Assembly: GCA_035277405.1 (NCBI GenBank)
Contig: DATEKP010000081.1
Span: forward strand, 1 to 32,640
From: Stellaceae bacterium
GTDB lineage: Bacteria > Pseudomonadota > Alphaproteobacteria > ATCC43930 > CGMCC-115725
DNA length: 32,640 nt
Direction of reading: 5' to 3'
Shown: in pieces, positions 1,770-17,177 of the stretch
Layout of the letters: each line of letters begins with the position of its first letter
Numbering within the stretch: position 1 is the first letter of the stretch
Notes under the pieces: model-generated
What the model saw: the letters and a program-made list of their open reading frames with translations, nothing else
Database searches by the model: none
What the model was told of the DNA's origin: nothing
Translations under genes and position numbers: made by a program

Positions 1770-1939
1770 CCGCTCTGTTTTCGGCTTGAGGAGCGCCCGG
1801 TCCGGCCGCCGGGCGCGCGCCGCCGCACAACCAGCGAGGGGCGGAACGGCCGGCCCTGCCCCGCGTTGGTTGGCGAGCTTGGGCGAGCCGAGGGGGCGCG
1901 GGAATTGGGCGAAATCCGCAACGGCCGGATTGCGGCGCG

Positions 1940-2617: not shown

Positions 2618-2627
2618 GGTTCCCCGG

Positions 2628-4001
2628 CTACCGCTCGCCTGTTTGCCGCGCCGCGATCTCCAGCGCCCGCTGCCGGCGGCCGAGCCACAGCGCGTTGACC
2701 AGCCACAACCCGGCCGCGACGATCGCGGCGGCGGTGGCGAGCGCGCCGCCGGCCTCGCGCAACAGGGCGGTGGACCACGCGCCGAGCTGATCGCCGAGGC
2801 GGTAGATGAAGGTATCGATGAAGCCTTTTGTCTTGTAGCGGTCCTCGCGCGGCGCGACCGTAAACAAGAGTTCGCGGGTCGGCCGCGCGATCGCGTAGTC
2901 GCCGGCGCGCCGTACGATCTGGACGACGGCCAGCATGCCGGCGCTCGGCAGCAATGCCAGCGCACCGAAACCGATCATCGTGAAGGCCGGCAGCAAGGCC
3001 AAGGTCAGCGCCACCCCGAGCGAGACGACAATCCGCCCGGTCAGCAGCAGCTGGATGAACAGGGTCAAGCCATTGACGCAGAGGTCGATCGTGGCGAAGA
3101 ACGCGGTCTGCGCGCCGCGCTCGGCAAAGCTGCGGCTGACGATCGCCGCCTGCTGGAAATAGAGAAAGGTCGAGGTCGTCGCATAGAGCAGCAGAAACGC
3201 CGCGATGTTGAGCAGATAGGGCGAGCGCACGGCATGGGTGACGCCGGCGACGATGCTGCCGCCGATCGGCCGCTCGTCGCGCGCCGAGACCTGCTCCGGG
3301 CGTGCCTGCAGCGCCGGCGACAGCACAGCCAACCGCACCGTGCTGAACACCGCCAGCTCGAGCAGCGCCGCGGCGCCCACCAGCAGCAGGCCAGGCGGGA
3401 CGTGGCGCGCCAGGATCGCCGTCGCGGCCGAGCCGACGATCGCGCCGAGCGTCGCCCCAGCGGCGATGAAGCCGAACAGCCGCCTGCCCTGTTCGGCGCT
3501 GAACAAATCGACATTGAGCTGCCAGAACACCGAGACGACGAACAGGTTGTAGATCGAAATCCAGACGAAGAAGGCGCGCCCGAGCCACACGCTCTGCTGG
3601 GCATCGACGAAATGCAGCGCCGCCGCGAAGGCGAGGATGTTGAGCGCGAAGAAACGGTACGTCAGCGGGATGAAGCGGCGCCGGGGCAATCGCTTGACCA
3701 GCGCGGAAAACAGCAGGTTGGCCACCAGCATGCCGGCGAAGGACGCGGTGAACAGCCATTGCAGGTTTCCGACCCCGCCGGCGACGCCCATTTGCTCGCG
3801 GATCGGCCGCATGATGTAGTAGGACGACAGCACCGCGAAGATCGACAGCCAGCACCACAGCGCGACACGCACCTCGTCGGGCCGCACCGCCACCACCCTC
3901 AGCAGCAGGCGGTGGGCAAGGCCGGGGCCGGCCGCAACCGCGGCACGCGAGTTGTCCGTCACCCTGCGAATTGCTCCTGTGCGGCATTCGCGGCCCGGCA
4001 A
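2628..4001 (-). CDS. Polytopic MFS-type transporter resembling the TLC / NTP-NDP exchange (Npt-like) family
   Basis: 457 aa when read from the most upstream TTG start. It has many hydrophobic segments. The N-terminal signature RPDEVRVALWCWLSIFAVLSSYYIMRPIREQMG is typical of this family. The start is uncertain; GTG at 3962 is an alternative. Confidence 0.72.
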   Translation of the reverse strand: MPGRECRTGAIRRVTDNSRAAVAAGPGLAHRLLLRVVAVRPDEVRVALWCWLSIFAVLSSYYIMRPIREQMGVAGGVGNLQWLFTASFAGMLVANLLFSALVKRLPRRRFIPLTYRFFALNILAFAAALHFVDAQQSVWLGRAFFVWISIYNLFVVSVFWQLNVDLFSAEQGRRLFGFIAAGATLGAIVGSAATAILARHVPPGLLLVGAAALLELAVFSTVRLAVLSPALQARPEQVSARDERPIGGSIVAGVTHAVRSPYLLNIAAFLLLYATTSTFLYFQQAAIVSRSFAERGAQTAFFATIDLCVNGLTLFIQLLLTGRIVVSLGVALTLALLPAFTMIGFGALALLPSAGMLAVVQIVRRAGDYAIARPTRELLFTVAPREDRYKTKGFIDTFIYRLGDQLGAWSTALLREAGGALATAAAIVAAGLWLVNALWLGRRQRALEIAARQTGER

Positions 4002-4026
4002 CCGCGCCGGGGATGCGCGCGGGCGG

Positions 4027-4776
4027 CTACTGCAATCCGGCCGCGATCTGGCGGATTTCCGCCGGCGTGTGTTCGCCTCCGAGCGGTGTGCCGGGCACCA
4101 GATATTTGCCCTTGGCCAGCCCGCCGACCAGCACCGGCTCGAAGCCGATCTCCTTGATCAGCGCGCTCGCCACGGCGATCGCGTCCTTGTCGTCGCCGGC
4201 GATCGGGACGCCGACCGGCTCGCCCTCGCGGTGGGCGTCCTTCGCCAGTTTGCTGGCGCCGATCGCGTTGAAGCCGCGCACCAGCCGCGCTCCCGGCAGA
4301 AGCTTCTGCGTCGCGAGGCCGGCGCCGCCCTGGGCCTCGGCCCATTTGACGATCTCCTCGCCGTCGCGCCGCGGGCTCGGGTTCGAGACGTCGAGGACGA
4401 GCTTCTTCGCGGCCAGCGCCTTGCCGTAATCGCGGCCGATCTGCTCGACCGCGCCGTATGGCACGATCAGCAGCACGACATCGGCGAACGCGACCGCGTC
4501 GGCGACCGAGCCGGCCTTGGCGTTCGGCCCGGCGGCGGCGACCAGTTCCGTCAGCTGCTCCGGATGGCGCGAGGAAAACATGACCGGATGACCGGCCTTG
4601 GCAAACAGCGTCCCGAGCGCGCCGCCCTCGCGCCCGGCGCCGATCGTCGCGATCTTCAGCGGAGCGGCCGCTGCTCCGCTTTGGGCGCGCCCGGCGGCCG
4701 GCAATCCGATCACGGCGGCGGTGGCCAGCCGCAGGAAGGCGCGGCGGCTGCCGCGATGCGTCAGAGCCAGGGACAT
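4027..4776 (-). CDS. NAD(P)-binding oxidoreductase (F420-dependent NADP reductase-like Rossmann protein) with twin-arginine signal
   Basis: ATG at 4776 is preceded by GGAG. The product begins MSLALTHRGSRRAFLRLATAAVIGLPAAGRAQS (Tat motif SRRAFL), followed by KIATIGAGREGGALGTLFAKAGHPV (GxGxxG). The track start at 4944 adds an Arg-rich, non-protein-like extension. Confidence 0.8.
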   Translation of the reverse strand: MSLALTHRGSRRAFLRLATAAVIGLPAAGRAQSGAAAAPLKIATIGAGREGGALGTLFAKAGHPVMFSSRHPEQLTELVAAAGPNAKAGSVADAVAFADVVLLIVPYGAVEQIGRDYGKALAAKKLVLDVSNPSPRRDGEEIVKWAEAQGGAGLATQKLLPGARLVRGFNAIGASKLAKDAHREGEPVGVPIAGDDKDAIAVASALIKEIGFEPVLVGGLAKGKYLVPGTPLGGEHTPAEIRQIAAGLQ

Positions 4777-5019
4777 AAAGGCGATCTCCGCAGCGAGGCC
4801 ACGGCGATTATACGGTTGGTCCGCCCGATACCGCCCTTCACGATTGCGCCAGCCGACGCGACCGCACGGCGATCGGCGATGCAGGACTTCCGAGGCAGGA
4901 TCCAACTCCGCGGCCCTCGGTAGTCGTCGCACCCTCACCCTCAACCCGGGCTGAGCGCGACGCGAAAACCCGCTCTTTCATAGACCGATCCGCGTTGCCA
5001 GAATGCCCGCCAGCCCAGC

Positions 5020-7074
5020 ATGGAGCCGGTCATGTCCGTCCAGGAGCGCGCCGGGGTCTGTACTCTCGATTGCCCGGACGCTTGCAGTCTCACCGTAACC
5101 GTGGACGAGGGCCGCATCCTCAAGGTGCGCGGCTCGCATGCCTTGCCCTACACGGCAGGAGTCATCTGCGACAAGGTAATGCGGCACAGCGCCGAGTTCG
5201 TCCACGGCGAGGGCCGGCTGTTATGGCCGCTGCGGCGGGTCGGGCCGCGCGGGTCGGGGCAGTTCGAGCGCATCGGATGGGACGACGCGCTCGGCGAAAT
5301 TCATCAGCGCGTCACGGCGGTGATCGACCGGTTTGGCCCGCAGGCTGTCATGCCCCTGAACTATGCGGGCCCCCACGGGATGCTGTCGGGCGACAGCATG
5401 TCCTTGCGGTTTTTTCATCGGCTGGGGGCGAGCCAACTCTACCGCCGGGCGTTGTGCGGCGGGGTGCGCAGCGAGGCGTGGGCCGGGACGTATGGTGCGG
5501 TGCCCGGCATCGGACCGGAGGCGGCCGCGAATGCCGCCTTGAACGTCGTATGGGGCAACAACGCGACGGTCTCCAACCTGCACCTGGTTCGCCAGGTCAG
5601 AGCGGCAAAGCGCAAAGGCGGGCGCCTCGCCGTCATCGACCCGCTGCGGACCAAGATCGCCGAGCAGGCTGATCTGCATTTGGCATTGCATCCCGGCACC
5701 GACGTGCTGCTCGGGTTCGCGCTCGCCGCCGAGTTGGAGCGAGTTGGCGCGCATGACCGCGCATTCATCGGCAAGCATGTCGGCGGCTACGAGGAATTCA
5801 TGGCCGTGGCGCGTGCGTGGCCGGCGGACCGGGCCGCACAAGAGTGCCGTGTCGCCTCGGACGACATCCGTCTTCTTGCCCGATGGATGGCCGAGGCCGA
5901 CCCGTTGGTATTGGCACCCGGCAACGGGCTGGAGCGCGGCCGGAACGGCGGCAGCGGCATCCGCTCGGCAATCGCATTGCCGGCATTGCTCGGCAAGATG
6001 GGACGCCGCAGCGGCATCGTGCTCGGCGCGAGCAATGCGTTCCCGAAAACCCCCGCCCGATTGCAGCGCCCCGACCTGCTGCCGCCCGGAACTCGGACGA
6101 TCAACATTCTCGATGCCGGCCGTCACCTGGAATGCGATGACGTCGACCCGCCGCTGCGCGCCGTGTTCATCTACAATCACAATCCTGTCGTCGTGCACCC
6201 CGATCAGAACCGATTAAAGCGGGGCCTCGCGCGCGAGGAGATTTTTCTGGTCGGCATCGAGATCGCGATGACCGAAAGCATGCGGTTCTGCGATATCGTC
6301 CTGCCGGCCGCGTCGCACTTCGAGTGCGACGATCTTTATTCGTCCTACGGTCATCACTGGCTGCAACGCACGGAGGCGGTCATCCCGCCGGTTGGCGAGG
6401 CACTCCCGAACACGGAAATTTTCCGCCGGCTGGCGGCGCAATTCTCGTTTGATGATCGGTGCTTCCGGGCGAGCGACCGAGACCTGATGGATGATGCGGT
6501 CGATCCGAGCGACCCTCGCTTGCAAGGGCATAGGGGCAGCGAACTCCCCCTGGGCGAGGCTCTGCGGATGAACGGCCCTGACGGGCAGCAACTGGCTCTG
6601 CTCGATAACGTGATGCCCGCGACCCCGTCGGGCCGGATCGATTTGGCCTCGGACGTGCTGGCGAGCCGGTGGGGGCAAATGGCGCGCCTGCCGGGCTACC
6701 GTCCGCAGGCGAGCAGATTTCCGCTGTCGCTGATCTCGCCCTCCTCCTCCACCCGCATTTCGTCCACCCTTCTCGGCCGCGGCGGCAAACCCGGAGACGC
6801 GCCGCCGCTGCGCATGAACCCGGATGACGCGCGTTCGCGCGGCCTTGCTGACAAGACTTCGGTTCGGGTGTGGAACGATCACGGCGCCGTCATCCTGAAG
6901 CTGGAGATCACCGATGCGGTCCCGCCCGGTGTCGTAGCCTCCGAAAAAGGCGCATGGCTGGCGACGAGCCCGACCGGCCAGACGATCAGCGCATTGGTTT
7001 CCGCCGATGACCGGGCCGATCTTGCAGCCGGGGCCTGCTTCAACGATGCGAGAGTCGAGGTTTCGCCAGGCTGA
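5020..7074 (+). CDS. Molybdopterin-dependent oxidoreductase (MopB superfamily), no signal peptide
   Basis: 684 aa. N-terminal Fe-S cysteine cluster: GVCTLDCPDACSL. The length and C-terminal beta-barrel-like region (VRVWNDHGAVILKLEITDAVPPGVV) are typical of the family. The start could be ATG 5020 or ATG 5032. Confidence 0.9.
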   Translation: MEPVMSVQERAGVCTLDCPDACSLTVTVDEGRILKVRGSHALPYTAGVICDKVMRHSAEFVHGEGRLLWPLRRVGPRGSGQFERIGWDDALGEIHQRVTAVIDRFGPQAVMPLNYAGPHGMLSGDSMSLRFFHRLGASQLYRRALCGGVRSEAWAGTYGAVPGIGPEAAANAALNVVWGNNATVSNLHLVRQVRAAKRKGGRLAVIDPLRTKIAEQADLHLALHPGTDVLLGFALAAELERVGAHDRAFIGKHVGGYEEFMAVARAWPADRAAQECRVASDDIRLLARWMAEADPLVLAPGNGLERGRNGGSGIRSAIALPALLGKMGRRSGIVLGASNAFPKTPARLQRPDLLPPGTRTINILDAGRHLECDDVDPPLRAVFIYNHNPVVVHPDQNRLKRGLAREEIFLVGIEIAMTESMRFCDIVLPAASHFECDDLYSSYGHHWLQRTEAVIPPVGEALPNTEIFRRLAAQFSFDDRCFRASDRDLMDDAVDPSDPRLQGHRGSELPLGEALRMNGPDGQQLALLDNVMPATPSGRIDLASDVLASRWGQMARLPGYRPQASRFPLSLISPSSSTRISSTLLGRGGKPGDAPPLRMNPDDARSRGLADKTSVRVWNDHGAVILKLEITDAVPPGVVASEKGAWLATSPTGQTISALVSADDRADLAAGACFNDARVEVSPG

Positions 7075-7157
7075 CGACCGAGAATGAGCCGAGAGATCCG
7101 GAGCTCTTGTCCTGCCGGAAGCGGCGTCACCGACCCGGCTGTTGCGCATCGCACAAT

Positions 7158-7979
7158 TCAGCTCGGCAGCCGACGGAACCGCGCAATCTGGTAGGTCAGC
7201 CAGCCAGCCGCATGCAGCCAGCGCAACACCCGGCCGGCGTCGGGGTTCTGCTGCAATTCCGGGTGCGGGTCGGGCGCGGTTATTCGGTAGCTCGGCCGGG
7301 TTTCCGCGGTCCAATCTGCCGCGTGTTCCACACTCAGGCCGACCGCCCGGGCCCAGCGCAGCAGGCGGGCATGATCGCACCACGGCATCGGCCAGGGACC
7401 GTAGTCGCGGCGCAGCGCGGCGACGATCGCGTCGCCCGGCCACGGCGCCGCGGCGCCGGGGTCGCGCAGCAGGATATCGGAAAGAATCAGGCTGCCGCCC
7501 GGGCGCAGTACTCGTGCCGCTTCCGCGAGAAACGAGCGGCGCGCACTGAAATGAAACATCGCCTCGATGCAAAGCACAGTGTCAAAGGAGGCGGCGGCGA
7601 ACGGCAGGCTGCAGGCGTCGGCTGCGACGAGGCTCAGGCTGCCGCGCGCCGGCGGTGCGACGCTGCGGCAGATCTGCAATTGGCGGGGGTCGATGTTAAG
7701 GCCGATCAGCGCCAGCCCCGATCGAAGCGCCGCCAGCATCGCGAGAGCCCCGCCCAGACCGCAGGCCACATCAAGCACCCGCTCGCCGTCCCGCGGCGAG
7801 GCGAGCGCAATCAGCCGCGCGGTCAATCGCGCCTGGGCAGCAATGAATTCGCCCGGCTCACACGCCCCGGAAAGGGCGGGCGGATCGTCCCAATAACCGA
7901 GATGGACGTCGCGGCCGGCCTGCCCGGCATGATAGGCGGCGATCAGCCCGTCGACGTAGGCCAGAGACGGGCGGCGCAT
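7158..7979 (-). CDS. Class I SAM-dependent methyltransferase
   Basis: 273 aa. Motif I: RVLDVACGLGGALAML. Post-I/II region: FDTVLCIEAMFHF ... LRPGGSLILSD. The ATG lies 1 nt after the upstream gene's stop (TGA-a-ATG at 7983..7977). Confidence 0.85.
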   Translation of the reverse strand: MRRPSLAYVDGLIAAYHAGQAGRDVHLGYWDDPPALSGACEPGEFIAAQARLTARLIALASPRDGERVLDVACGLGGALAMLAALRSGLALIGLNIDPRQLQICRSVAPPARGSLSLVAADACSLPFAAASFDTVLCIEAMFHFSARRSFLAEAARVLRPGGSLILSDILLRDPGAAAPWPGDAIVAALRRDYGPWPMPWCDHARLLRWARAVGLSVEHAADWTAETRPSYRITAPDPHPELQQNPDAGRVLRWLHAAGWLTYQIARFRRLPS

Positions 7980-7980
7980 T

Positions 7981-8802
7981 TCAGCCCCAACACAAAACCT
8001 GGTCGCCGCCTCGGCTCTCCGCCATGAAGCTGCAGGCGGTCCATCGCGTCACCGGTCCCTTCACCGGGTTGACGCGATGCAGATACCGCCCGGAGTTGAA
8101 GAGGATCATCTCGCCCGGCGCGAGCCGGAAACGGACGCTCGGGATGCCGCCGAGGTTGAGCCGCGAGGCGTCCTCCGGCCCGTCGATCATGCGGAAGCGA
8201 CGGCCGCCGTGCTGCAGATCGAAGATCTCCAATTCGCCGCCGGCCTCCGGCTGCGAAAATGCAATGACAAACGAAAACAGATCGCTGCCGATCTGCGGCA
8301 CGATCAGCCGGTAGCTGTCGCGATATGCCTGTTCATTATCAAAATGCGGCGGGATGAAACCGCCGGTCAGATGAGCGCGCAATGTCGTGAACATGTGGTC
8401 GAGTTCGGGCTCCGACCCCGCGGCGGCGCGGTACGGCCGGCCTTCGTCGAGCGCCGACAGGAGCCCGCCAATGCGGGTTTCGAGATCGATGCTGCCGGCG
8501 AAGAGGCGCCTGAGCCCGGCGCGGAACTCCGGCGCGGCGCGGAAGTAGGCGACGAGATCGGGCGGCGTCAGGTTGAGATTCATGCCGAGGAAATGACCGC
8601 GCATCGCCGGCGGAAAGTCGCTGCACACCAGCCCGGTCCGGCCCGCTTCGAGCCGCTCCACGAGGCGGGCGCATTCTGCCGCGCCATAGACGCCGCGCAG
8701 CAGCAGACCATGGAACTCGGCGCGCCGCATCCGCCGGATCGCATCGGGAAAGCGCGCCGCATCGGCAGCGTCAATGGCGAGCGTGTCAAAAAAGACCGGC
8801 AC
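7981..8802 (-). CDS. Putative Fe(II)/2-oxoglutarate-dependent oxygenase (cupin/JmjC-like fold inferred)
   Basis: 273 aa with a GTG start. Candidate facial triad: H153-F-D155 (PPHFDNE, 8338..8346) and H242 (RYLHRV), with R253 eleven residues later as a possible 2OG-binding Arg. The functional call is motif-level only. Confidence 0.6.
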   Translation of the reverse strand: MPVFFDTLAIDAADAARFPDAIRRMRRAEFHGLLLRGVYGAAECARLVERLEAGRTGLVCSDFPPAMRGHFLGMNLNLTPPDLVAYFRAAPEFRAGLRRLFAGSIDLETRIGGLLSALDEGRPYRAAAGSEPELDHMFTTLRAHLTGGFIPPHFDNEQAYRDSYRLIVPQIGSDLFSFVIAFSQPEAGGELEIFDLQHGGRRFRMIDGPEDASRLNLGGIPSVRFRLAPGEMILFNSGRYLHRVNPVKGPVTRWTACSFMAESRGGDQVLCWG

Positions 8803-8924
8803 CGATCACATTCCGCCCCAGGGACCCCGTCCCACCCACCTCACCGCCTGGAAAGCGGCACATCTCGGGCCCGTTCGCTGCGCCTTTGCCCGGACGACAA
8901 GAGGCAGTAGCGGCAGCGTGCAGC

Positions 8925-9875
8925 TCAAATGGCCGGCGGCGCCTGTATCGGACGCAGGATCCGCTCGTCGTAGCCGTATTTCGCAATGTAAGCGGTGCTC
9001 AATCCCAGGCATTCGGTAGAGGCGCAGCGGTCGCGGTATACGCATTGATAGAAGCCGTTGCGCATGAACTCGGGCCAGAAGGCCGGATCGACAAAAAGCT
9101 GCGGCTGCGCGTTCGAAAGAGCGGCCGCGTCCTCGCCCAACAGGCATTCCGGAAAGTTCTTGATCTCGACGCCGCGACCCAACCGCCGCGCCCGGGCGAC
9201 GGCCTCGCGCAGGTAAGGCAGGACAGCCGCGTGCGGAGCGATCAAATCCTTCTCGTCACTCTCGCTCATCGGCCAATACACCCAGAATTCCATCTGGACC
9301 AGATTGCGCAGGTGCCCGAGGCGTTCGACGATTTGCGGCAGCAGCGAGTAGTTGCGACTTGTTACGACCGAGTTGGTCAGCGTGGCGACGCCCTCGAACC
9401 GGTCGAGGATCTCAAGCCCGCGCAGCGTCTTGTCGAACGACCCGACGACGGTGGTGATCGCGTCGTGCGTCTGAGCGTCCGGACCCGCGACGCTGACAAA
9501 ATATTCATCGATGCCGGCCGCGACCAATACTTCGCTGAACCCGCGTTGCGCCAAGTGCATGCCGTGCGTTTGAATCCGCACATGCTCGAAGCAAGCGGCG
9601 CGCGCCTGTTTCGCCAGTTCGGCAAGGTCGCGGCGCAAGGTGATTTCCGATCCGGTCAGGATCAGGCCCTTCCATCGCCGGGTGCGTGCATTTTCGGCGA
9701 GGAGCGCGGCAAACCGCCCGTCCGATTCCGGCTGCAGCCGGTCCATCGTGCCTTCGATCATGCAATGGACGCAGCGCAGATTGCAGCGGAACTCCATGGT
9801 CATCGAGACATAGTCGCGATGATCGAAGTTGTGCAGCGCTGCCGGGCGCGGCGCTGCTTCAGCTCTGACGGACAT
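8925..9875 (-). CDS. Radical SAM enzyme with extra C-terminal cysteine cluster
   Basis: 316 aa. Canonical CxxxCxxC motif: FRCNLRCVHCM (C31, C35, C38; 9762..9785). A GSE-type SAM-binding stretch follows: LILTGSEITL. C-terminal cysteines C243, C278, C284 and C289 (QCVYRDRCASTEC, 9009..9044) may bind an auxiliary cluster. Confidence 0.9.
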   Translation of the reverse strand: MSVRAEAAPRPAALHNFDHRDYVSMTMEFRCNLRCVHCMIEGTMDRLQPESDGRFAALLAENARTRRWKGLILTGSEITLRRDLAELAKQARAACFEHVRIQTHGMHLAQRGFSEVLVAAGIDEYFVSVAGPDAQTHDAITTVVGSFDKTLRGLEILDRFEGVATLTNSVVTSRNYSLLPQIVERLGHLRNLVQMEFWVYWPMSESDEKDLIAPHAAVLPYLREAVARARRLGRGVEIKNFPECLLGEDAAALSNAQPQLFVDPAFWPEFMRNGFYQCVYRDRCASTECLGLSTAYIAKYGYDERILRPIQAPPAI

Positions 9876-9928
9876 GGTCGGGTACCGCCGTCGCCGGTGG
9901 GGCTTCCGCGTGGCGCGTTCGGTTCCGA

Positions 9929-10801
9929 TCAGAGGAGGCCATAAAAGGCGCTCTTCGTTACCCTTACCATGCCGGCTTCCACGACATAGTCGATCCCGAC
10001 ATCATACAGCAAATGGTCGAGATCATCGCGATGATCGCGCACAAACGCGACGAGATCGGAGGGAAACCGCTCCTGCTCCACAAACCCGATCAGCCCGGCC
10101 ACCGGAATGCGCGAGAAATAGACGCCGTCGCCGAACCTCTTGTTCGCAACAACGATGACGGCACAATCCAGCAGCTCGGGCCGCAGCACCGCATTGAGCG
10201 GATAACCGCCGAGATCGTGGTGAACCGAGCAACCGACCTTGGCGGCAACGTCGTCCATCTCGCGTCTCGCGTCGAAGAAGTAATATAGATTGGCAAGTCG
10301 CAAGCCAGACGCCGATTGCTCATAGCAGATGCCAGAGGAGACGCTGCTGCCGGGATTGCCTATATAAATGTTTATGGTATCGAGCGGACGCTCGCCGGCG
10401 ACGATCTCTTCGTCCAGATCGATCGAAAACATGAAATAGGGCCGCCCCTCCAGAGGCGGCAGGGCGCAGCGGACCAGCGGCGCCAGGATCGCGCGAACCC
10501 GCGTGATCGAGACCGCACGCTGCAGCCGCGCATAATCGTAAAAGTAGAATTCGAAGCGGAGCCGGCCGCCGAAATTCTTCACCCCGAAAACGGTCTGCCC
10601 GGGTCCTAACGCGTCGCGCAGCGCTCGGCACGCGGCGGCCAGACGCGGCATGCCGCCGGCGGCCTCCATCGACTGCCACAGCAAGTTGGCGCCGCGCAGC
10701 TTGCCGGCAGCGGGCGACAGGGGCCGGTAATCCCACAGGCAATAGTCGGCGTAGCGGTCGTGCGGCGCCGTCCGCTCGAGTGGCGGGGCAGCCCCAGTCA
10801 T
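9929..10801 (-). CDS. Hypothetical protein (290 aa), no recognised family
   Basis: An internal ATG at 10801 lies 10 nt after the upstream stop; the track start at 10963 would overlap the upstream gene. The product is MTGAAPPLERTAPHDRYADYCLWDY... It has repeated aromatic beta-strand-like motifs (RLRFEFYFYDY, YFMFSIDL, INIYIGN, LYYFFDA, VYFSRI) and ends SAFYGLL. Confidence 0.7.
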   Translation of the reverse strand: MTGAAPPLERTAPHDRYADYCLWDYRPLSPAAGKLRGANLLWQSMEAAGGMPRLAAACRALRDALGPGQTVFGVKNFGGRLRFEFYFYDYARLQRAVSITRVRAILAPLVRCALPPLEGRPYFMFSIDLDEEIVAGERPLDTINIYIGNPGSSVSSGICYEQSASGLRLANLYYFFDARREMDDVAAKVGCSVHHDLGGYPLNAVLRPELLDCAVIVVANKRFGDGVYFSRIPVAGLIGFVEQERFPSDLVAFVRDHRDDLDHLLYDVGIDYVVEAGMVRVTKSAFYGLL

Positions 10802-10811
10802 CGGGTTGGAC

Positions 10812-11609
10812 TCAATGAGCTTCGACTCCGTAGTAGAAGGTGACGAACTCCGCGCCGTCGCGCCCGATCCCGGCGGAGAGATGGCCGAGCGCGACGCTTC
10901 CGGCGCCGCCGAAGACCGGCGTTCCCTGCGACGGCGGCACCGCGAAATCGTCGAGCGCCGCATCGATCACATCACACACCTGGGCGAGGCACAGCCCGGC
11001 GTCATAGACGTTGAGATCACAGGATTGCCGCGGGTTTCCCGGCTCTTCAACCAGCATCATCAGCAGGCGCCCAGCCTCGGCCAAAGCGGCGACCCGGTCG
11101 AGCAGGCCGAGCGCGCAGCGCAGCGCCCGCGGCGCCTCCGCCGCCGGCAGAAGGACGCGCAGCCTCGCCTCGACAGCGTGACGAGTGCGGCAGTGAACCC
11201 AGCTGTATCGTGTCACGGAGCCCCCGCCGGGCCCTCTTACCGGCCACTTATACGCAAGGTGGACGAGCACGGAGCCGCCGTTCGCGGTCGCAATCGCGCG
11301 CCGCGCCGCGCCGGCATATTCGAAATAAATCTTCCGCAGCTCGAAACCCGGCCCGGCCTCGTGTCCGAAATGAACGAACTCGGCGTCATCGAATGCCCGC
11401 GGCAACTCATCCGCGAACTCGGCCGGGATTTCCAGCTCGCGGCCGATCCGGATCAGCCGGTCGAGCGGCGCCGGGCCCAGACCTGCCCGGTGGATGCTGA
11501 GCAGGCAGCGATCCGCCAGCACTGCGCCCGGCACGATCTTCACGGATTTTTCCATGCCGTAGGGTGCGCCCAGTTGCGCCACAAGCCTGACCAAATCCTC
11601 GGCCGGCAT
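10812..11609 (-). CDS. Hypothetical protein (265 aa), possible distant paralogue of the 9929..10801 product
   Basis: The ATG overlaps the halogenase stop (TGATG at 11611..11607). It contains FVHFGHEAGPGFELRKIYFEYAG, comparable to VFGVKNFGGRLRFEFYFYDYA in the neighbouring protein, and ends FVTFYYGVEAH. No known motif is recognised. Confidence 0.7.
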   Translation of the reverse strand: MPAEDLVRLVAQLGAPYGMEKSVKIVPGAVLADRCLLSIHRAGLGPAPLDRLIRIGRELEIPAEFADELPRAFDDAEFVHFGHEAGPGFELRKIYFEYAGAARRAIATANGGSVLVHLAYKWPVRGPGGGSVTRYSWVHCRTRHAVEARLRVLLPAAEAPRALRCALGLLDRVAALAEAGRLLMMLVEEPGNPRQSCDLNVYDAGLCLAQVCDVIDAALDDFAVPPSQGTPVFGGAGSVALGHLSAGIGRDGAEFVTFYYGVEAH

Positions 11610-13132
11610 CAGAGAGCCACCCGATGCAGTTGAGCGAGATGTGCCTTGTGGTCCGCCATCCGGGCGGCAACATCGCGATTTTCCGCCCTGATTCGGTCGA
11701 GCAGCTGCCAGACCTCGGCGGGGCGCGCGATCTCGGCCTCGACGATCAGCCGTCGCGGCAGCCGCTCGTTTCCGGCAAGAATGTAGAAATAGCTGGGCTC
11801 CGGAAACAGTTCCCGCACCGGGGTTTCAATGCGTCCGGTTTGGTCGTAGAGCGCCATCCTTTCGGCAAGGCTTTCGGGCAGGCTGACGCTGCGTGCATCG
11901 CGCCAAAACTCCTCGTCGCGCTGGGCCAGGACATAGTGCAATATGATGAAATCGCGCACCTGATCGTAGACTGCGCTCATCTGGTCGTTGTAGGCACGGC
12001 GCAGCGCCTCGTCAAAATCCCGATCCGGCCAATACTTGATCAGCAGTTCGACCGCTTTCTGGATCAGGTGAATGCCGGTCGATTCCAACGGTTCGACAAA
12101 ACCGGAAGAGAGCCCGACCGAGATGCAGTTGCGCACCCAGAACTCGGCGCGCCGACCGATGCGTATTTTCAGAAGCCGCGGATCAGCAGAGCGCTCTTTC
12201 ATTCCGGATTGCCGGATCAGCGCGGCGACCGCGGCCTCGGCCGAGATGTGAGCGCTCGAAAATACGTACCCGGTGCCGGTCCGGCTGTTCAACGGTATGC
12301 GCCATGTCCAGCCCGCGGGCATCGCCGTGGCGAGCGTATAGGGCGGAAACCGGTCGCCGCGCGGCAACGGCAACGCAACCGCGCGGTCGCACAGCATCAA
12401 ATGCGACCAGTCGATCCATTTTGCGCCGAGAGCCTGCTCGATCAGTCGTCCGGTAAACCCGGTTGCATCGATAAACAGGTCCCCGCCGAGCGTGCGATCG
12501 CCGCCGATGTCCAAGCCGGTAATATTGCCACGCTCGTCGAGCGTCACCTCTTTGACTTCGCCGAACAGGTGCTGAACGCCCTCGCCGGTCGAGATCTCGC
12601 GCAAATAGGCGGCGAAGGCGCTCGCATCGAGGTGATATGCATAGCTGCCCGTCTGCTCGATGATCGAGGTGCCGCGAGCCGGCTTCGGCGATTTCTCCAA
12701 TTCGCAGAGCCGCGCCTGCAGCGAATATTCCGAATAGGCAAGGCGACTGGCCGCCTCGACCCGCCGCTTCCGCCAGTAATGGAACAGGTCAAGCCCATTG
12801 ATCTGGGCGCCGCATAGCCCGAAGGCGTGCCAGTACGTGAAGTCTTGCCGCAACCAGCCGTCGAACCGGATAGCCAGCTTGTAGGTGGCCGAGCATCGGC
12901 GCATGAACTCCTGTTCGTCCAGGTTCAGCGCACGCACGAACTGCACCAGGCTCGGGATTGTCGCCTCGCCGACCCCGATTGTGCCAAGCGTCGGGGATTC
13001 TACCAGCACCACCTGGCACCCCAGCCGTCGCATGAAGCGGTTGAGATAAACCGCGGTAATCCATCCCGCCGTGCCGCCGCCGACAATGACGACGCGGTGA
13101 AGCCGCTGCGGCTGATCTGCGGCAGGCAGCAT
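11609..13132 (-). CDS. Flavin-dependent tryptophan halogenase family protein
   Basis: 507 aa. Motifs: VIVGGGTAGW (GxGxxG, 13064..13081), GVGEATIP, the lysine context ATYKLAIRF (K85), GWTWRIP (WxWxIP, 12293..12310) and GFVEPLESTG. A strong AGGAG lies 6 nt upstream of the ATG and overlaps the stop of the preceding gene. Confidence 0.92.
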   Translation of the reverse strand: MLPAADQPQRLHRVVIVGGGTAGWITAVYLNRFMRRLGCQVVLVESPTLGTIGVGEATIPSLVQFVRALNLDEQEFMRRCSATYKLAIRFDGWLRQDFTYWHAFGLCGAQINGLDLFHYWRKRRVEAASRLAYSEYSLQARLCELEKSPKPARGTSIIEQTGSYAYHLDASAFAAYLREISTGEGVQHLFGEVKEVTLDERGNITGLDIGGDRTLGGDLFIDATGFTGRLIEQALGAKWIDWSHLMLCDRAVALPLPRGDRFPPYTLATAMPAGWTWRIPLNSRTGTGYVFSSAHISAEAAVAALIRQSGMKERSADPRLLKIRIGRRAEFWVRNCISVGLSSGFVEPLESTGIHLIQKAVELLIKYWPDRDFDEALRRAYNDQMSAVYDQVRDFIILHYVLAQRDEEFWRDARSVSLPESLAERMALYDQTGRIETPVRELFPEPSYFYILAGNERLPRRLIVEAEIARPAEVWQLLDRIRAENRDVAARMADHKAHLAQLHRVAL

Positions 13133-13141
13133 GCGTTCTCC

Positions 13142-14209
13142 TCAAGCCGGCCGGTGCGCGGTTATCAGATGAAATTCCATGTCCAACTCGATTGCGCAAT
13201 GGTCGATGGCTTCGAAGCCGACCTCGGCGAGAGTCGTCAGATAAAGCTCCGCCGGCCTCAGGAAATGGACGAAGGCGAGCGCCGGGAAAAGCGCGTACGG
13301 CAGCCGCCGGCCGGCAAGATTGATCGGCGCGCGTTCGAAGATGACGAGCTTTCCGCCGGGCCGGACGGCGAGGTGCGCGCGCTCAATCAGCTGACGCGCG
13401 TCCGCGTCCGGCCAGTCATGCAGAACCGACTTGAACGACACCAGGTCGGCCGGAGACGGCAGCGGGCCGGTTCGCATATCGCCGGGGAAGAAGCCGATCC
13501 GCCCCGCCAGGCGTGGGCCGGCAGACCGTGCGATATGCTGCCGCCCAAGTTCGCAGACCACAGGCAGATCCAGTACGGTTGCCTGCAGCGAAGGGTTTCG
13601 CCGGCAGGCCTGAAGCGCGAACTCACCGGTGTTGCCGCCGAAATCGATCAGGCGCTCGACGTCGTCGATGCCGATCATATCGAGTGCCGGGGCAGCCTCA
13701 TACTTCGTCAGGCAGGTGGTAAATTGCGTCCAGGCGCGCGTCGCCTCCAGGTTTTCCGCGGTAATCTCGAAGCATCTGTCATAGCGGAACAGCTCGAATA
13801 CCTTCGAGCGCGCCATGAAACGCGGAAGGTCGGTCAGCAACGGCGTGAACAGCTCGTGGATATCGGGCCAAACCAGATCAGCGAAGGCAATCCTGCATTC
13901 CAACAGATCGCGGAAGCGAAGCCCCGCCTCGAATTCCGTGGTCAGCGCCACGACGTCGCCGGCACGTACAAGCACCGCATTCGACGCGAGCAAGTCTGAC
14001 AGAAGCCCGAGCCCCGCTGGACTGACGCGAAGCTCACGGCCCAAAACCGCCAGCGGGGTTGCCCCATTGCGCTGCAAAAAATCCACAAGGCCGAGTTCGA
14101 GGCCGCTCTTCAAAGCGCGCGCGTCGATTTCGCTGCCGAGGAAGGCGTTCACCTGCAGGAAGTCGAGATTGGCCGGCTGCACCAGCTGCCGCGCGCACCC
14201 CGGCAGCAT
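13142..14209 (-). CDS. O-methyltransferase family 2 (COMT-like, with N-terminal dimerisation/winged-helix region)
   Basis: 355 aa. SAM motif: LIDFGGNTGEFA. Also ATVLDLP, FFPGDM, and SVLHDWPD in the catalytic His region. The ATG overlaps the upstream stop by 1 nt (TAATG at 14211..14207). Confidence 0.88.
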   Translation of the reverse strand: MLPGCARQLVQPANLDFLQVNAFLGSEIDARALKSGLELGLVDFLQRNGATPLAVLGRELRVSPAGLGLLSDLLASNAVLVRAGDVVALTTEFEAGLRFRDLLECRIAFADLVWPDIHELFTPLLTDLPRFMARSKVFELFRYDRCFEITAENLEATRAWTQFTTCLTKYEAAPALDMIGIDDVERLIDFGGNTGEFALQACRRNPSLQATVLDLPVVCELGRQHIARSAGPRLAGRIGFFPGDMRTGPLPSPADLVSFKSVLHDWPDADARQLIERAHLAVRPGGKLVIFERAPINLAGRRLPYALFPALAFVHFLRPAELYLTTLAEVGFEAIDHCAIELDMEFHLITAHRPA

Positions 14210-15171
14210 TACGGAATCCGATCTTTCGGGCTCTCGGCGTCGTCGGCCGAACGCTCGGGCAGGTCGAAGGCGACCCGGCAGCGCAGGCCCGCCGGCACCT
14301 CATTGTCGGGGTTCGGCAGTTCGAGCCTGACGCCGAACGTGCCGCTCGCCGCATCGAAGACCTGGTCAACAACGGTCACCTTCGCCTTGCGGTCGCCACC
14401 GAACGGATCGTTCGGATGAACCGCCGCGATTTCGCCGATCTTGATGAATTTGTAATAGCGAACCGGCAGGTACGTCTCGACATTGAGCGGATTGATCTGT
14501 GCGATCGAGACGATCGTCGCTTCCTGATTGACGAATTCGCCCGGGCCGAGCGAGCGCTTCGTGACGACGCCGTCAATTGGGCTGCGGATTGTCCGCAGCG
14601 CCAGTTCGGCCTCAGACCGCGTCAGCTCGATCTGTGCCATGCGATGATTCAGCATTCCGAGCGCGAGTTCCTGTGTCGCCACATTGTATTCTGCCTTGGC
14701 GTTATCGACGTCCTGAACACTCGCCACGTGTTGCTGCTGCAACTCGAGCTTGCGCTTCAGGACAGCCTCCTTCTGGGTCAGCACCGCCTGCTTGGCCTGG
14801 ATTTCGGCGGTACTGTCGCCGCGCGCTTTGTTGGCGGCGACGACCGCCTGTTCGACGTCGGATTGCAGATGCGCGACGATCTGGCCCTTCTTGACGGTAT
14901 CACCGCGATCGACATTGACGCTGTCGAGTATGCTCGACACCGAGCTGCCGAGCTTCAGGCTGAGTGACGGCTCCGTCACGCAATCGAAGCTGGTCGCAGC
15001 GGCATTGGCGCCGCGCGCAAGGCCGGCGGCGCACACAAGCAGCAAGCCGCCGCGAAAGAGCACACGACCGCCGAGCATCGCGGCCTTACCAAAGACGTTC
15101 ATTCGCGATCCAACAAAAGGGATGGCAGAGCCGCCGCGGCGACCCGGCGGGGCTGGGCGGTGGCGTGTCAT
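14209..15171 (-). CDS. HlyD / RND-adaptor type periplasmic membrane fusion protein (MFP)
   Basis: It has an N-terminal anchor or signal (MNVFGKAAMLGGRVLFRGGLLLVCAAGLARG), a lipoyl-like motif (VDRGDTVKKGQIVAHL), a coiled-coil stretch, then RSPIDGVVTKRSLGPGEFV. Start 15171 forms an ATGA overlap with the SecA-like stop. ATG 15102 is an alternative start. Confidence 0.85.
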   Translation of the reverse strand: MTRHRPAPPGRRGGSAIPFVGSRMNVFGKAAMLGGRVLFRGGLLLVCAAGLARGANAAATSFDCVTEPSLSLKLGSSVSSILDSVNVDRGDTVKKGQIVAHLQSDVEQAVVAANKARGDSTAEIQAKQAVLTQKEAVLKRKLELQQQHVASVQDVDNAKAEYNVATQELALGMLNHRMAQIELTRSEAELALRTIRSPIDGVVTKRSLGPGEFVNQEATIVSIAQINPLNVETYLPVRYYKFIKIGEIAAVHPNDPFGGDRKAKVTVVDQVFDAASGTFGVRLELPNPDNEVPAGLRCRVAFDLPERSADDAESPKDRIP

Positions 15172-17177
15172 TCGGGCATTCCGGAAAAGGCCAGGGTCTT
15201 CGTTTGCCATTGATCGGAACGCAGCAGATCCGCCCGCATGCGGGCATGCAGCCGTTCCGCTCGCCGTTGCGCGTAATGCGAGGCTCCGCTGCCGACCCAG
15301 GCACCCAGCACGCGGGCCGCGACTTTTGCGATGCCAGAGAGGGCGATGCCGGTTTCGGTATCCATCAGCGGGTCCTCCAGCGACAGGATCGCCTCGAAAG
15401 ACCCCGGCTGTCCCTGGCGGCCTGCGCGCCCGGCGAGTTGCAGGTCAATCCGCCGCGCGTCATGGCGCTCGGTCATGATGACGTGCAGTCCGCCAAGCTC
15501 TTCGATCCCCTCGCCGAGATGGATGTCGGTGCCGCGGCCAGCCATGTTGGTTGCGACCGTGATGCGCCCCCGCTTGCCGGCCTCGGCGACGATCTCGGCC
15601 TCGCGCTTGTCCTGCGTCGCGTTGAGCACGGTGTGGGGCAGCCCGGCGGCATTCAGCGCCAAACTGGCGCGTTCGGAACTGGTGACCGAGCGTGTCCCGA
15701 TCAGGATCGGTACTCCGAGCTTATGCAGTACGGCGACGCGTGCCACGATGGCTCGCCACTTCTCCTCCTCGGTCGCGAGGACCACCTCGGGGCGGTGAAG
15801 CCGGCGCACAGGCTTCGCGGTCGGAATGGCAACGACCGGACGCCGGTAGACCCGCCAGAGTTCAGCGGCGACCGGCAGCAGCGTTCCACTCATTCCGGCG
15901 AGCCGTTGGTATCGCCGGAAGAAGCGCTGGTAAGTAATGCGCGCGATCGTGGTACGCCGAACGGACAGCTCGCAGTTTTCCTTGTGCTCGATCATCTGAT
16001 GCAGCCCGTCGCTCCACGAGCGGTCCGGCATGATGCGCCCGGTATATTCGTCGACGATGCACACCTTGCCGTCGGCAACCACGTAGTGCTCGCCGCGGTT
16101 GAAGAGATGAAGGGCCGCGAGGGCCTGGCGCGCGAGCTCCTCACGGCTCACGATACTGTGCCAATGGCCGCCGAGGCCTTCGGCGAAGGCGGTGATGCGA
16201 TCCTGCCCGGCGACGGTCAGGTGAACACGGCGCTCCTCGTTCGACGCGATGAAATCGGTGTTCGCGTCGAGCGAGCCGGCCAGCCGCAGCGCCGCGGCCA
16301 CGGTGTCGGCATCGAGCACATTGTCGGCCGCGCCGGAAATGATCAGCGGCGTTCTCGCCTCATCGACGAGCACGCTGTCGGCCTCGTCGACGAGGGCGAA
16401 GTGCAGACCCCGCAGGCGCAACTGCCGTGCCCGCGGCGTCGAGCTGTGCAGCGCCTCGACCTTCAGCGGCAGGTCGCCGGCCGCCTGGCCGAGGACCATG
16501 CGGTCCCGCAGATAGTCGAAGGCGAGCTCTTTGTTCGTGCAGTAGGTGATGTCGCAAGCATAGGCCGCCTGACGCTCGGCGGTGGTCTGGCCGCCGACGA
16601 CGATCCCGACGCTGAGGCCGAGGCTGGCGTAGAGCGGCCCCATCCATTCGGCATCGCGGCGCGCCAGGTAATCGTTGACGGTGACGACGTGGATCGGGAT
16701 GCCGGCCAACCCGGCCGTGCCGGCAACTAAGGTCGCGGTCAGCGTCTTGCCCTCGCCGGTCGCCATCTCGGCGAGCATGCCCCGCACCATGGCAAACGCA
16801 CCGACGAGCTGAACGTCGAAATGGCGCTGACCCAGGATTCGGCCCGACAGTTCACGAATCAACGCGAAGGCGCGGGCGGCCTCAGCATCGGGAAAGCCGT
16901 GCCGGCGCCGCAACGCGGCCGCAGTGTCGCGGATCGCCGCCGGAAACGCTTCGCCCGGCAACACCCGAAGCTCCGCCGCGTGGGCCTCGACGAGCGGCAG
17001 AATGCGCGTGAGGCGATGCATGCGCCAGCGCGCTGTCCGAGCTATCAGCTGCGCCTGGCCGGCGATCAGCGCGCCTTCCAGCGCGCTCTCCCGCCGTTCG
17101 GGCGCGTCGGCGTAGATGCGTTGGCGCGGCAATGCGACAGGATCGGCCGCGGTGCCCCAGGCAATGGCGCTAGACAC
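15168..17177 (-). CDS. Truncated SecA-like ATPase (NBD1, preprotein cross-linking domain and NBD2 only; no helical scaffold/wing or C-terminal tail)
   Basis: Motifs: HFDVQLVGAFAMVRGMLAEMATGEGKT (Walker A, 16743..16766), VVTVNDYLARRDAEWMGPLY, VDEADSVLVDEARTPLIISG (16332..16391), TNMAGRGTDI, and GGLHVIMTERHDARRIDLQLAGRAGRQGQPGS. Only about 60 aa follow the last motif. The start is uncertain: GTG 17177 overlaps the upstream stop by 8 nt, and TTG 17132 and ATG 17021 are alternatives. Confidence 0.85.
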   Translation of the reverse strand: MSSAIAWGTAADPVALPRQRIYADAPERRESALEGALIAGQAQLIARTARWRMHRLTRILPLVEAHAAELRVLPGEAFPAAIRDTAAALRRRHGFPDAEAARAFALIRELSGRILGQRHFDVQLVGAFAMVRGMLAEMATGEGKTLTATLVAGTAGLAGIPIHVVTVNDYLARRDAEWMGPLYASLGLSVGIVVGGQTTAERQAAYACDITYCTNKELAFDYLRDRMVLGQAAGDLPLKVEALHSSTPRARQLRLRGLHFALVDEADSVLVDEARTPLIISGAADNVLDADTVAAALRLAGSLDANTDFIASNEERRVHLTVAGQDRITAFAEGLGGHWHSIVSREELARQALAALHLFNRGEHYVVADGKVCIVDEYTGRIMPDRSWSDGLHQMIEHKENCELSVRRTTIARITYQRFFRRYQRLAGMSGTLLPVAAELWRVYRRPVVAIPTAKPVRRLHRPEVVLATEEEKWRAIVARVAVLHKLGVPILIGTRSVTSSERASLALNAAGLPHTVLNATQDKREAEIVAEAGKRGRITVATNMAGRGTDIHLGEGIEELGGLHVIMTERHDARRIDLQLAGRAGRQGQPGSFEAILSLEDPLMDTETGIALSGIAKVAARVLGAWVGSGASHYAQRRAERLHARMRADLLRSDQWQTKTLAFSGMPE

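Follow-up and report, generated by a model that had tools for sequence, protein, structure and literature searches.

A seven-gene block of tailoring enzymes in a Stellaceae bacterium belongs to a conserved gene system with a SecA-like/HlyD export module and a giant surface protein

Results

Organization of the locus

Contig DATEKP010000081.1 of a Stellaceae bacterium (assembly GCA_035277405.1) carries seven adjacent genes for tailoring enzymes at positions 7158–14209, followed at higher coordinates by the genes of an export and processing module and of a giant surface protein. We refer to the whole stretch of DNA analysed here as the window, which is the whole contig of 32,640 bases with a GC content of 66%. 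Between base 32640 and position 7158, every substantial gene is on the minus strand, with little space between neighbours. Comparison with related loci reveals these seven genes to be the enzyme part of a larger, conserved set of genes and not a stand-alone pathway. Two of its products, named ABBA1 and ABBA2, have a predicted prenyltransferase (PT)-barrel fold. The genes are as follows, with core and accessory referring to the enzymes of the system (SAM, S-adenosylmethionine; ORF, open reading frame).

7158–7979, minus strand: class I SAM methyltransferase, 273 aa; Methyltransf_11 (PF08241), E 1.2e-21; accessory
7981–8802, minus strand: WelO5-family Fe(II)/2-oxoglutarate oxygenase, 273 aa; PF22814, E 2e-50; accessory
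8925–9875, minus strand: radical SAM enzyme, 316 aa; PF04055, E 5e-14; core
9929–10801, minus strand: ABBA2, 290 aa; ORF to 10963, conserved start 10801; predicted PT-barrel fold; core
10812–11609, minus strand: ABBA1, 265 aa; predicted PT-barrel fold; core
11609–13132, minus strand: flavin-dependent tryptophan-halogenase family protein, 507 aa; PF04820, E 4.5e-156
13142–14209, minus strand: O-methyltransferase, 355 aa; PF00891, E 3e-24; core
14209–15102, minus strand: HlyD3, periplasmic adaptor (RND_mfp/HlyD); ORF to 15210; TIGR01730, HlyD_D23
15168–17177, minus strand: truncated SecA-like ATPase, about 669 aa; ORF to 17384; SecA_DEAD, SecA_PP_bind
17170–19326, minus strand: fusion of a PqqD-like domain, an M50-type intramembrane HExxH protease and an HlyD-like domain, 718 aa; PqqD, Peptidase_M50, NF041824
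19334–21268, minus strand: GAF + HlyD periplasmic adaptor, about 644 aa; ORF to 21343; HlyD_3, HlyD_D23, GAF
21274–21627, minus strand: DUF3467 protein, 117 aa; PF11950, E 1e-15
21684–32640, minus strand: giant RTX-type surface protein, more than 3650 aa, N-terminus off the window; HemolysinCabind, DUF3383

An earlier description of this DNA, made from the letters without database searches (hereafter the sequence-only reading), had described the seven genes as co-directional, with 53 and 122 nt as the two largest gaps, and as overlapping the export module by 1 nt. All of this agrees with our analysis. The seven genes share the minus strand and the coding pattern of a high-GC genome, with GC contents at the three codon positions of about 0.65–0.75 (GC1), 0.45–0.57 (GC2) and 0.76–0.81 (GC3). 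From 7158 upward, the gaps within the block are 1, 122, 53, about 10, −1 (an overlap at 11609) and 9 nt, and the start of the O-methyltransferase gene overlaps the stop of the HlyD3 gene at 14209. The family calls made for the O-methyltransferase, the tryptophan halogenase, the radical SAM enzyme, the 2-oxoglutarate (2OG) oxygenase and the second methyltransferase were likewise confirmed by Pfam matches.

The mechanical ORF starts of 9929–10963, 14209–15210, 15168–17384 and 19334–21343 overlap the upstream genes by 70–215 nt. Alignment of homologues puts the real starts at about 10801, 15102, 17177 and 21268, so that the long overlaps vanish and a tightly packed operon remains, in which the end of the M50 gene and the start of the SecA-like gene share 8 nt. 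Promoter- and terminator-like sites across 6900–15400 occur at chance level only, and Rfam gave no match anywhere in the window.

The absence of a scaffold gene, also pointed out in the sequence-only reading, was borne out: family searches of the major ORFs of the window found no non-ribosomal peptide synthetase (NRPS), polyketide synthase, terpene synthase or isonitrile synthase, and no cyclase or TonB receptor was found in the window by the same searches. Because the window is the whole contig, an antiSMASH run on the full contig would add no sequence.

Conservation of the system in related loci

Scanning 185,579 species-representative genomes with an ABBA1 alignment returned 29 loci (27 non-redundant), all from metagenome-assembled genomes (MAGs); individual loci are cited below by numbers such as L001. 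Most belong to soil Alphaproteobacteria, including Xanthobacteraceae, Bradyrhizobium, Stellaceae, Beijerinckiaceae, Devosia, Enterovirga and Shimia. The others come from Betaproteobacteria (Sulfuritalea, Burkholderiales) and Gammaproteobacteria (Thiohalocapsa and others).

The export module adjoins ABBA1, at a distance of at most 10 kb, in 23 of the 27 non-redundant loci, and the remaining four are short or cut contigs. It was on this co-occurrence in other genomes that the sequence-only reading had staked its tie between block and module, and the tie stands. Its description of the block as an orphan, in contrast, does not hold, for the enzymes are part of a larger system conserved across related loci. 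The module is co-directional with the enzymes in the window, L001, L004 and L005, and divergent in L003, L006, L008, L010 and more. Since the linkage is kept across such rearrangements and across three proteobacterial classes, the enzymes belong with the export module.

The conserved enzyme core comprises the O-methyltransferase (homologues in 23 of the 27 related loci), ABBA1, ABBA2 and the radical SAM enzyme. Around this core, the enzyme content varies. Most alphaproteobacterial loci have the halogenase, and it is missing from L005, L021, L023, L024, L029 and L031. A uridine-kinase-like P-loop kinase (PRK08233-like) occurs in 16 loci and is absent from the window; two Devosia MAGs carry it fused to the N-terminus of ABBA1 (L023, 9317–10798; L024, 7273–8931), and it is a separate gene in 14 other loci. 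The fusion hints that ABBA1 is supplied with a phosphorylated substrate or donor. L001 holds a classical 2OG oxygenase (PF13759). In the betaproteobacterial loci, ABBA1 directly follows HlyD3 and is the sole core enzyme seen, accompanied by the kinase, and L026–L030 have ABBA1 plus the kinase only. Of all the enzymes, ABBA1 shows the tightest coupling to the export module.

The pair of WelO5-like and methyltransferase genes is found in two of 28 loci counting the window, the other being L017. In L017 (2074–6384, a Beijerinckiaceae MAG), the pair is inserted on the opposite strand, with the SecA-like gene on one side and the HlyD3 gene on the other, and is accompanied by two B12-binding-type radical SAM genes. 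This insertion looks like a mobile accessory tailoring cassette.

A reduced variant is found on a plasmid of a cultured bacterium, Pontibrevibacter nitratireducens ALG8 (L033, NZ_CP049813.1, 1–20572). It has an RTX protein, DUF3467, HlyD, M50, a 3926-aa Sec-signal/autotransporter-like protein, ABBA2 and the radical SAM enzyme, and it has no SecA-like ATPase, ABBA1 or O-methyltransferase. All of its products except the RTX protein, DUF3467 and the radical SAM enzyme are annotated as 'hypothetical protein'.

We also notice that core genes in L003, L011, L022 and L034–L036 are split by frameshifts. Gene callers report the fragments, which inflates the count of small 'genes'; the splits probably reflect assembly error in long-read metagenomes rather than pseudogenes. 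In the window itself, the left flank (1–7100) holds an enoyl-CoA hydratase (774–1553, plus strand), an SLT lytic transglycosylase (1940–2617, plus), an MFS transporter (2628–4001, minus), an F420/NADP-type oxidoreductase (4027–4944, minus) and a molybdopterin oxidoreductase (5020–7074, plus) that is convergent with the end of the operon. These genes look unrelated, and none of them is conserved beside the system in other loci.

ABBA1 and ABBA2 have a predicted prenyltransferase fold

ABBA1 and ABBA2 are the two proteins that the sequence-only reading had left unrecognised. At the level of annotation this remains correct, as neither has a Pfam or NCBIfam match or a significant match to solved structures by sequence or profile search; at the level of predicted structure, both turn out to resemble a known fold. 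At least 139 homologues of ABBA1 were found, which vary little in length and have no Pfam domain, and the ABBA2 family has 1956 members at E ≤ 1e-5. Kinship between the two was sought by BLASTP and hhalign and none was detectable, so we treat them as distinct families with nothing but the fold in common.

AlphaFold2 models were built on alignments of the homologues of each protein. The model of ABBA1 reached a pLDDT of 92 and a pTM of 0.89, and that of ABBA2 a pLDDT of 83.7 and a pTM of 0.87. Both models show ten strands in five pairs with helices between the pairs. In Foldseek searches against the PDB, the top 50 matches of both models were exclusively ABBA aromatic prenyltransferases, with probabilities of 0.98–1.00. 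The neighbours of ABBA1 include PagF, PriB, KgpF, TleC, 5-DMATS, LimF and DciF (E from 4e-7; TMq 0.46–0.64), and those of ABBA2 include DMATS1, TleC, IptA, EpzP, AmbP1/3 and FamD1 (E from 3e-6; TMq 0.36–0.52).

The invariant residues of ABBA1 include K24, R34, K93, Y95, E97, K121, Y135, R194, D198, Y202 and Y259; those of ABBA2 include K75, E84, Y86, Y88, Y146, Y160, R168, K221 and K283. In both families, invariant Lys, Arg, His, Tyr, Glu and Asp residues alternate along the predicted strands, which is the pattern expected of a conserved barrel interior. An ABBA/PT-barrel aromatic prenyltransferase fold is therefore well supported by the models for both proteins, and both may catalyse prenyl transfer.

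Compared with described ABBA prenyltransferases, the two proteins have the same predicted antiparallel ten-stranded barrel with flanking helices, which in that superfamily is built from five alpha-alpha-beta-beta repeats. Known members bind the prenyl diphosphate through basic and Tyr residues that line the barrel as a ring, and they have a catalytic acid/base. Their structural neighbours are of two kinds, one acting on peptides (PagF, KgpF, LimF, DciF) and one acting on indole or tryptophan (PriB, IptA, 5-DMATS, TleC, AmbP1/AmbP3/FamD1). ABBA1, in contrast, is with its 265 residues shorter than the known members, and the context of a secretion machine and a giant protein is unlike that of any described prenyltransferase.

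Halogenase, radical SAM enzyme, oxygenase and methyltransferases

The halogenase carries GGGTAG (the GxGxxG FAD motif) at residue 18, the catalytic Lys 85 in ATYK (82–85), WTWRIP (WxWxIP) at 275 and the conserved Glu in EPLES at 347. All catalytic motifs of its family are thus retained. Its closest solved structures are 9luq, 6frl (BrvH) and 6y1w (Xanthomonas), aligned over the full length at E values of about 1e-104 to 1e-101. BrvH and the Xanthomonas enzyme prefer free indoles and are not known to accept free tryptophan well, and no natural substrate is known for either.

PF22814 covers the full length of the WelO5-family oxygenase. The protein has the H153-F-D155 part of the metal-binding triad and the second His in YLHR at 240, and the best PDB alignment sets its HFD on the 'HVD' of WelO5 chain 5iqu. 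At that metal-site position the wild-type WelO5 halogenase has a Gly; carrier-independent halogenases of this type have H-x-G/A where other Fe/2OG enzymes have the H-x-D/E facial triad, and a halide site is thereby opened. From this H-x-D triad, the protein should be read as a hydroxylase-type oxygenase and not as a second halogenase.

The radical SAM enzyme is the most conserved enzyme of the set, with 55–89% identity across related loci. It has CNLRCVHC (the CxxxCxxC motif) at residue 31 and a C-terminal three-Cys cluster, CVYRDRCASTEC, at 278. It is related only distantly to the closest models, HxsC4, AhbD, MoaA and BlsE, and scores far under the cut-off of each. The O-methyltransferase matches PF00891 and, weakly, PF08100, and is of the small-molecule type with a dimerisation domain. 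For the second methyltransferase (7158–7979), the nearest NCBIfam models are lipid or hydroxyl O-methyltransferases (Mtf2, phthiotriol methyltransferase), all under cut-off.

The export and processing module

The SecA-like ATPase matches SecA_DEAD (E 3e-95), SecA_PP_bind (E 1e-24) and P-loop_SecA (E 8e-52) and contains GEGKT and DEAD motifs. Against the PDB, it aligns only to residues ~59–547 of SecA chains of 780–840 aa, and every SecA and SecA2 model of NCBIfam stays under its cut-off. Of the full SecA architecture, to which a helical scaffold also belongs, only NBD1, the preprotein cross-linking domain (PPXD) and NBD2 align, and the helical wing, the two-helix finger and the C-terminal linker are missing. 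By its domain content, it is a SecA-derived ATPase that retains the motor and the preprotein-binding domain and lacks the parts engaging SecYEG. The gene is conserved in nearly all related loci.

In the 718-aa fusion protein, the PqqD part scores 22.7 bits, just under the cut-off of 23.4, and Peptidase_M50 matches weakly. The daptide HExxH protease model NF041824 matches residues 18–404 (E 8.7e-43; 147 bits against a cut-off of 300). The M50 part has HELGH (HExxH) at residue 210 and NGNPLLRFDG at 304–313, which fits the pattern NxxPxxxxDG. These matches uphold, below the model cut-offs, the proposal of the sequence-only reading that a PqqD-like domain fused to a protease follows the logic of ribosomally synthesised and post-translationally modified peptides (RiPPs).

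The window encodes three different HlyD-type proteins, one of which also has a GAF domain. HlyD3 scores 129 bits with TIGR01730 (cut-off 94.9), has a signal-anchor-like N-terminus and is kept beside the SecA-like gene in relatives, and the GAF-HlyD protein is conserved in all loci that hold the export module. No ABC transporter was found in the window or in the conserved module; the SecA-like ATPase and the M50 membrane protein stand in that place. A TolC was not seen in the window, nor was the OmpA-like tandem barrel protein that lies upstream of DUF3467 in relatives. In the gammaproteobacterial loci L021 and L029, a type-I-secretion TolC lies inside the cluster (TIGR01844, 281 bits against a cut-off of 225).

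In every locus the export module begins with the DUF3467 gene, whose product is the most conserved small protein of the system. It has a variable N-terminus and a highly conserved 80-aa domain, with 47–77% identity in 14 aligned related loci, in which W37 and W69 are invariant. A Pfam search at E ≤ 10 gave DUF3467 only, and a profile search of solved structures gave nothing significant. A SecB-like chaperone beside a SecA-like ATPase would be a neat fit for this protein, as a candidate only. We compared it by hhalign with E. coli SecB, and the match was not significant (probability 0.3%); it paired the strand-helix junction 'IVLTPFAAKRLW' of DUF3467 with 'NILFPYARECIT' of SecB (the 'LFPYAR' segment) and is kept as a lead only.

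The giant protein and SapC

The giant protein of the window matches HemolysinCabind (E 1e-32) and DUF3383 and has a HELAH motif at 22608–22622. Its frame is open to base 32639 despite the listed ATG at 32531, so the protein is longer and its N-terminus lies off the contig. The C-terminal 120 aa share 35% identity with the giant of L001, with which there is a C-terminal domain in common (SEIxF...WVFDE...G.FV; about 21687–21971), and the motifs SEI..F and ..V[FY]D recur in L032. Wherever the flank is long enough, a related locus has a nearby ORF that is well over 1000 codons long and usually runs off the end of the locus.

The N-terminus of such giants is visible downstream of SapC, whose gene lies between those of the radical SAM enzyme and the giant in 18 related loci. 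The conserved N-terminus consists of M-[A/S]-[F/Y]-P-F, a basic stretch often with WFW or WLW, and RLxFDPLEPRLLLNAD. The nearly invariant M-[A/S]-[F/Y]-P-F precedes the LEPR-XLL motif by about 45–65 residues (L010, 13946–14155, and 14 other loci). The LEPR-XLL domain NF012209 scores 27.8 bits in the L010 giant (cut-off 17), and its motif is visible in 14 further loci. In most halogenase-bearing loci, the basic stretch holds WFW or WLW.

In a collection of 5.8 billion proteins, this N-terminal domain is rare, with 23 clusters that are all short fragments. Three divergent matches were looked up, the weakest included, and all of them lie in the context of the same system, with M50, GAF-HlyD, DUF3467 and an outer-membrane protein on one side and the genes from the O-methyltransferase through SapC on the other. 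SapC takes its name from the gene that heads the type I secretion operon for the S-layer of Campylobacter fetus.

Search for a precursor peptide

A short precursor ORF in homologous cassettes had been suggested as a place to look for the substrate. We checked every short ORF of the window against all ORFs of about 30 loci, which included flanks of up to 10 kb on either side, and found no conserved small precursor ORF; the only window ORFs conserved across loci are out-of-frame shadows of real genes and DUF3467. Nothing conserved was found in the intergenic regions of L010 and distant loci. The intergenic spaces are sizeable in close relatives and shrink to about 100 nt in distant loci. Both observations make a clustered small precursor unlikely, as far as the compared sequences tell.

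The missing substrate of the sequence-only reading would be better accounted for by the giant protein, which was one of the three options offered there and is always present, than by an absent small precursor.

Discussion

The substrate of the enzymes

We tentatively favour the reading that an exported polypeptide, most plausibly the giant protein, has its aromatic residues modified by the enzymes. The enzymes and the export machine would then share one substrate. Several lines of evidence lead us to a polypeptide. The linkage of enzymes and module outlasts rearrangements, and the search described above gave no conserved small precursor ORF. The machine has a PPXD, a PqqD-like domain and a homologue of a leader protease, along with three HlyD adaptors and, in the gammaproteobacterial loci, TolC. 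A giant protein with a conserved terminal segment is invariably present, and SapC is associated with type I secretion of surface proteins. The enzymes are gained and lost modularly between loci, which is more easily reconciled with separate decorations of one common substrate than with a linear pathway. We also count in its favour that the peptide prenyltransferases PagF, KgpF, LimF and DciF are among the structural neighbours and that BrvH and the Xanthomonas enzyme, among the nearest solved halogenases, are not known to accept free tryptophan well.

In the proposed mechanism, the enzymes would halogenate, prenylate, methylate or otherwise alter aromatic residues of the polypeptide in the cytoplasm. 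The PqqD-like domain would recognise the modified polypeptide, which the M50 protease may trim, and the SecA-like motor would drive it out via the HlyD/outer-membrane conduit. Such an exporter would be functionally analogous to the peptidase-containing ABC exporter of type I secretion. The likeliest polypeptide would be the giant protein, with its N-terminus conserved in related loci, and DUF3467 would be the second candidate.

Several points weigh against this proposal. Modification and export of a polypeptide are what we infer from gene content, predicted folds, motifs and linkage, and the window shows neither the N-terminus of the giant, nor SapC, nor an outer-membrane component. The TM-scores of ABBA1 and ABBA2 to known prenyltransferases are moderate (0.36–0.64), their diphosphate-binding residues are not mappable residue by residue in the models, and the closest structural matches also include prenyltransferases of free tryptophan and indole. 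O-methyltransferases of the PF00891 type and uridine-kinase-like P-loop kinases normally act on small molecules, and we know of no ABBA enzyme whose substrate is a protein thousands of residues long. An association between the halogenase and WFW in the basic stretch of the giant (counts 8/1/1/3, Fisher p = 0.05, with L005 and L025 as exceptions) is weak and rests on phylogenetically non-independent loci, and it is not used here.

The main alternative, which we consider possible, is that the enzymes turn tryptophan or indole into a halogenated, prenylated and O-methylated indole metabolite. In the window, this metabolite would be additionally hydroxylated and methylated, and it could be a siderophore-like compound, a toxin or a signal. 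The adjacent machine could export it, or the GAF domain of the HlyD adaptor could sense it and thereby control secretion of the giant. The ABBA folds near the indole and tryptophan prenyltransferases PriB, IptA, 5-DMATS, TleC, AmbP1/3 and FamD1 would suit such a pathway, as would the WelO5-family oxygenase, the small-molecule-type O-methyltransferase, a halogenase nearest to the indole-brominating BrvH and Xanthomonas enzymes, the small-molecule-type P-loop kinase fused to ABBA1 in Devosia, and the GAF domain in the module. Moreover, a halogenated siderophore-like product has been predicted for neighbourhoods of SapC, tryptophan halogenase and 2OG oxygenase (Iyer et al., 2010; PMC2938197). Yet the linkage to polypeptide-handling parts (SecA PPXD, PqqD, M50) and to the giant is maintained in three classes and through many rearrangements. 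The minimal loci, with ABBA1 with or without the kinase or with ABBA2 plus the radical SAM enzyme, are hard to fit to one linear pathway, and the window is without an isonitrile synthase, cyclase, NRPS or TonB receptor.

A canonical RiPP, whose small precursor is encoded elsewhere in the genome, was the leading idea of the sequence-only reading and seems unlikely to us. In such a scheme, the PqqD-M50 protein would remove the leader and the HlyD/SecA-like machine would export the peptide, with the giant as a bystander or a separate cargo. The fusion of a PqqD-like domain to a homologue of the daptide leader protease speaks for it, together with the cyanobactin-type peptide prenyltransferases among the structural neighbours (PagF, KgpF, LimF, DciF), the place of the radical SAM enzyme in the broad SPASM/twitch neighbourhood, which includes peptide maturases, and the variable accessory tailoring cassettes. 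On the other hand, RiPP precursors nearly always cluster with the recognition-domain enzymes, and the comparison of about 30 loci described above yielded no conserved small ORF and only short intergenic spaces in distant loci. What is conserved instead is the giant protein, SapC and DUF3467.

Still less probable is that DUF3467 itself is the modified and exported substrate, a precursor-like protein of about 110 aa with the giant merely a co-secreted neighbour, for although its first place in the module, its conservation, its invariant tryptophans and its persistence in the Pontibrevibacter variant would agree with such a role, the conserved part is a folded-domain-like 80 aa behind a varying N-terminus, the opposite of a leader/core pattern, the strand-strand-strand-helix pattern and the non-significant SecB match point, as a lead only, to a chaperone, and DUF3467 is a widespread Pfam family outside such contexts.

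Comparison with known systems

Type I secretion, including exporters with a peptidase-containing ABC transporter and the sapCDEF S-layer exporter of Campylobacter fetus, resembles the present system in its HlyD adaptors, in TolC and SapC (here in relatives), in an RTX/LEPR-XLL giant next door and in a protease domain built into the inner-membrane component. It differs in that the present system has no ABC transporter, with a truncated SecA and a PqqD-like/M50 protease instead, and has three different HlyD-type proteins, one of them with GAF. With daptide RiPP clusters, the system shares the match to the intramembrane HExxH protease model over the whole length of that model and the logic of a recognition domain plus a protease. 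Unlike them, it has an extra C-terminal HlyD domain and no genes for a daptide precursor, aminotransferase or decarboxylase.

In the hapalindole/welwitindolinone clusters (AmbP1/P3, WelO5, WelM), too, ABBA folds go together with a WelO5-family oxygenase, with SAM methyltransferases and with chemistry that halogenates an indole-type scaffold. The present system, in contrast, has a proteobacterial host and no isonitrile synthase or Stig cyclase genes, and halogenation would come from the flavin enzyme and not from the WelO5-like one. We rejected membership in this type of cluster on the missing isonitrile synthase and cyclase, the H-x-D triad and the merely accessory status of the WelO5/methyltransferase pair.

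Also related are the neighbourhoods of SapC, tryptophan halogenase, 2OG dioxygenase and TonB receptor described by Iyer, Abhiman, de Souza and Aravind (2010; PMC2938197), where the SapC prototype is also cited. In both cases a halogenase with an intact catalytic Lys, SapC (here in relatives) and classical 2OG oxygenases co-occur, with a sporadic distribution in Alpha- and Gammaproteobacteria. The present system differs in having no TonB-dependent receptor anywhere and no JmjC protein, and the published description is without the ABBA pair, the radical SAM enzyme, the O-methyltransferase, the SecA-like/M50/HlyD module and the giant protein. In the literature searched, we found no description of the system, and only the SapC/tryptophan-halogenase/2OG association was known. 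Each enzyme represents a known fold, as a new member or as a new sequence family of it. What is undescribed is that such enzymes are combined with a giant LEPR-XLL protein and an HlyD-type exporter that is SecA-derived and ABC-less.

Implications

Returning to the modified polypeptide, we speculate on a more specific form of secretion-coupled maturation, which is conceivable although somewhat doubtful as a whole: a giant LEPR-XLL/RTX protein would be prenylated and halogenated on aromatic residues, probably in its conserved N-terminal segment, by two hitherto unrecognised ABBA prenyltransferase families, a flavin halogenase and a radical SAM enzyme, and exported via a SecA-powered, PqqD-M50-gated, type-I-like conduit. 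If so, a large bacterial protein would for the first time be seen to undergo ABBA-type prenylation, and the envelope-spanning exporter would have a new architecture, with a SecA motor recruited into a Sec-independent, HlyD/TolC-type machine. It would mean that bacteria lipidate or halogenate giant adhesin-like proteins with enzymes known only from small-molecule and small-peptide natural products. Cultured Pontibrevibacter nitratireducens ALG8, with its reduced version of the system, makes part of the proposal testable.

If instead the indole metabolite is the true product, the system would represent a widespread pathway of soil Alphaproteobacteria to halogenated, prenylated indoles, and it would offer a concrete, expressible model for the long-unexplained SapC/tryptophan-halogenase neighbourhoods. 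Should the modified-polypeptide proposal prove true, two unannotated protein families, one of them with nearly 2000 metagenome members, would gain a fold and a testable function.

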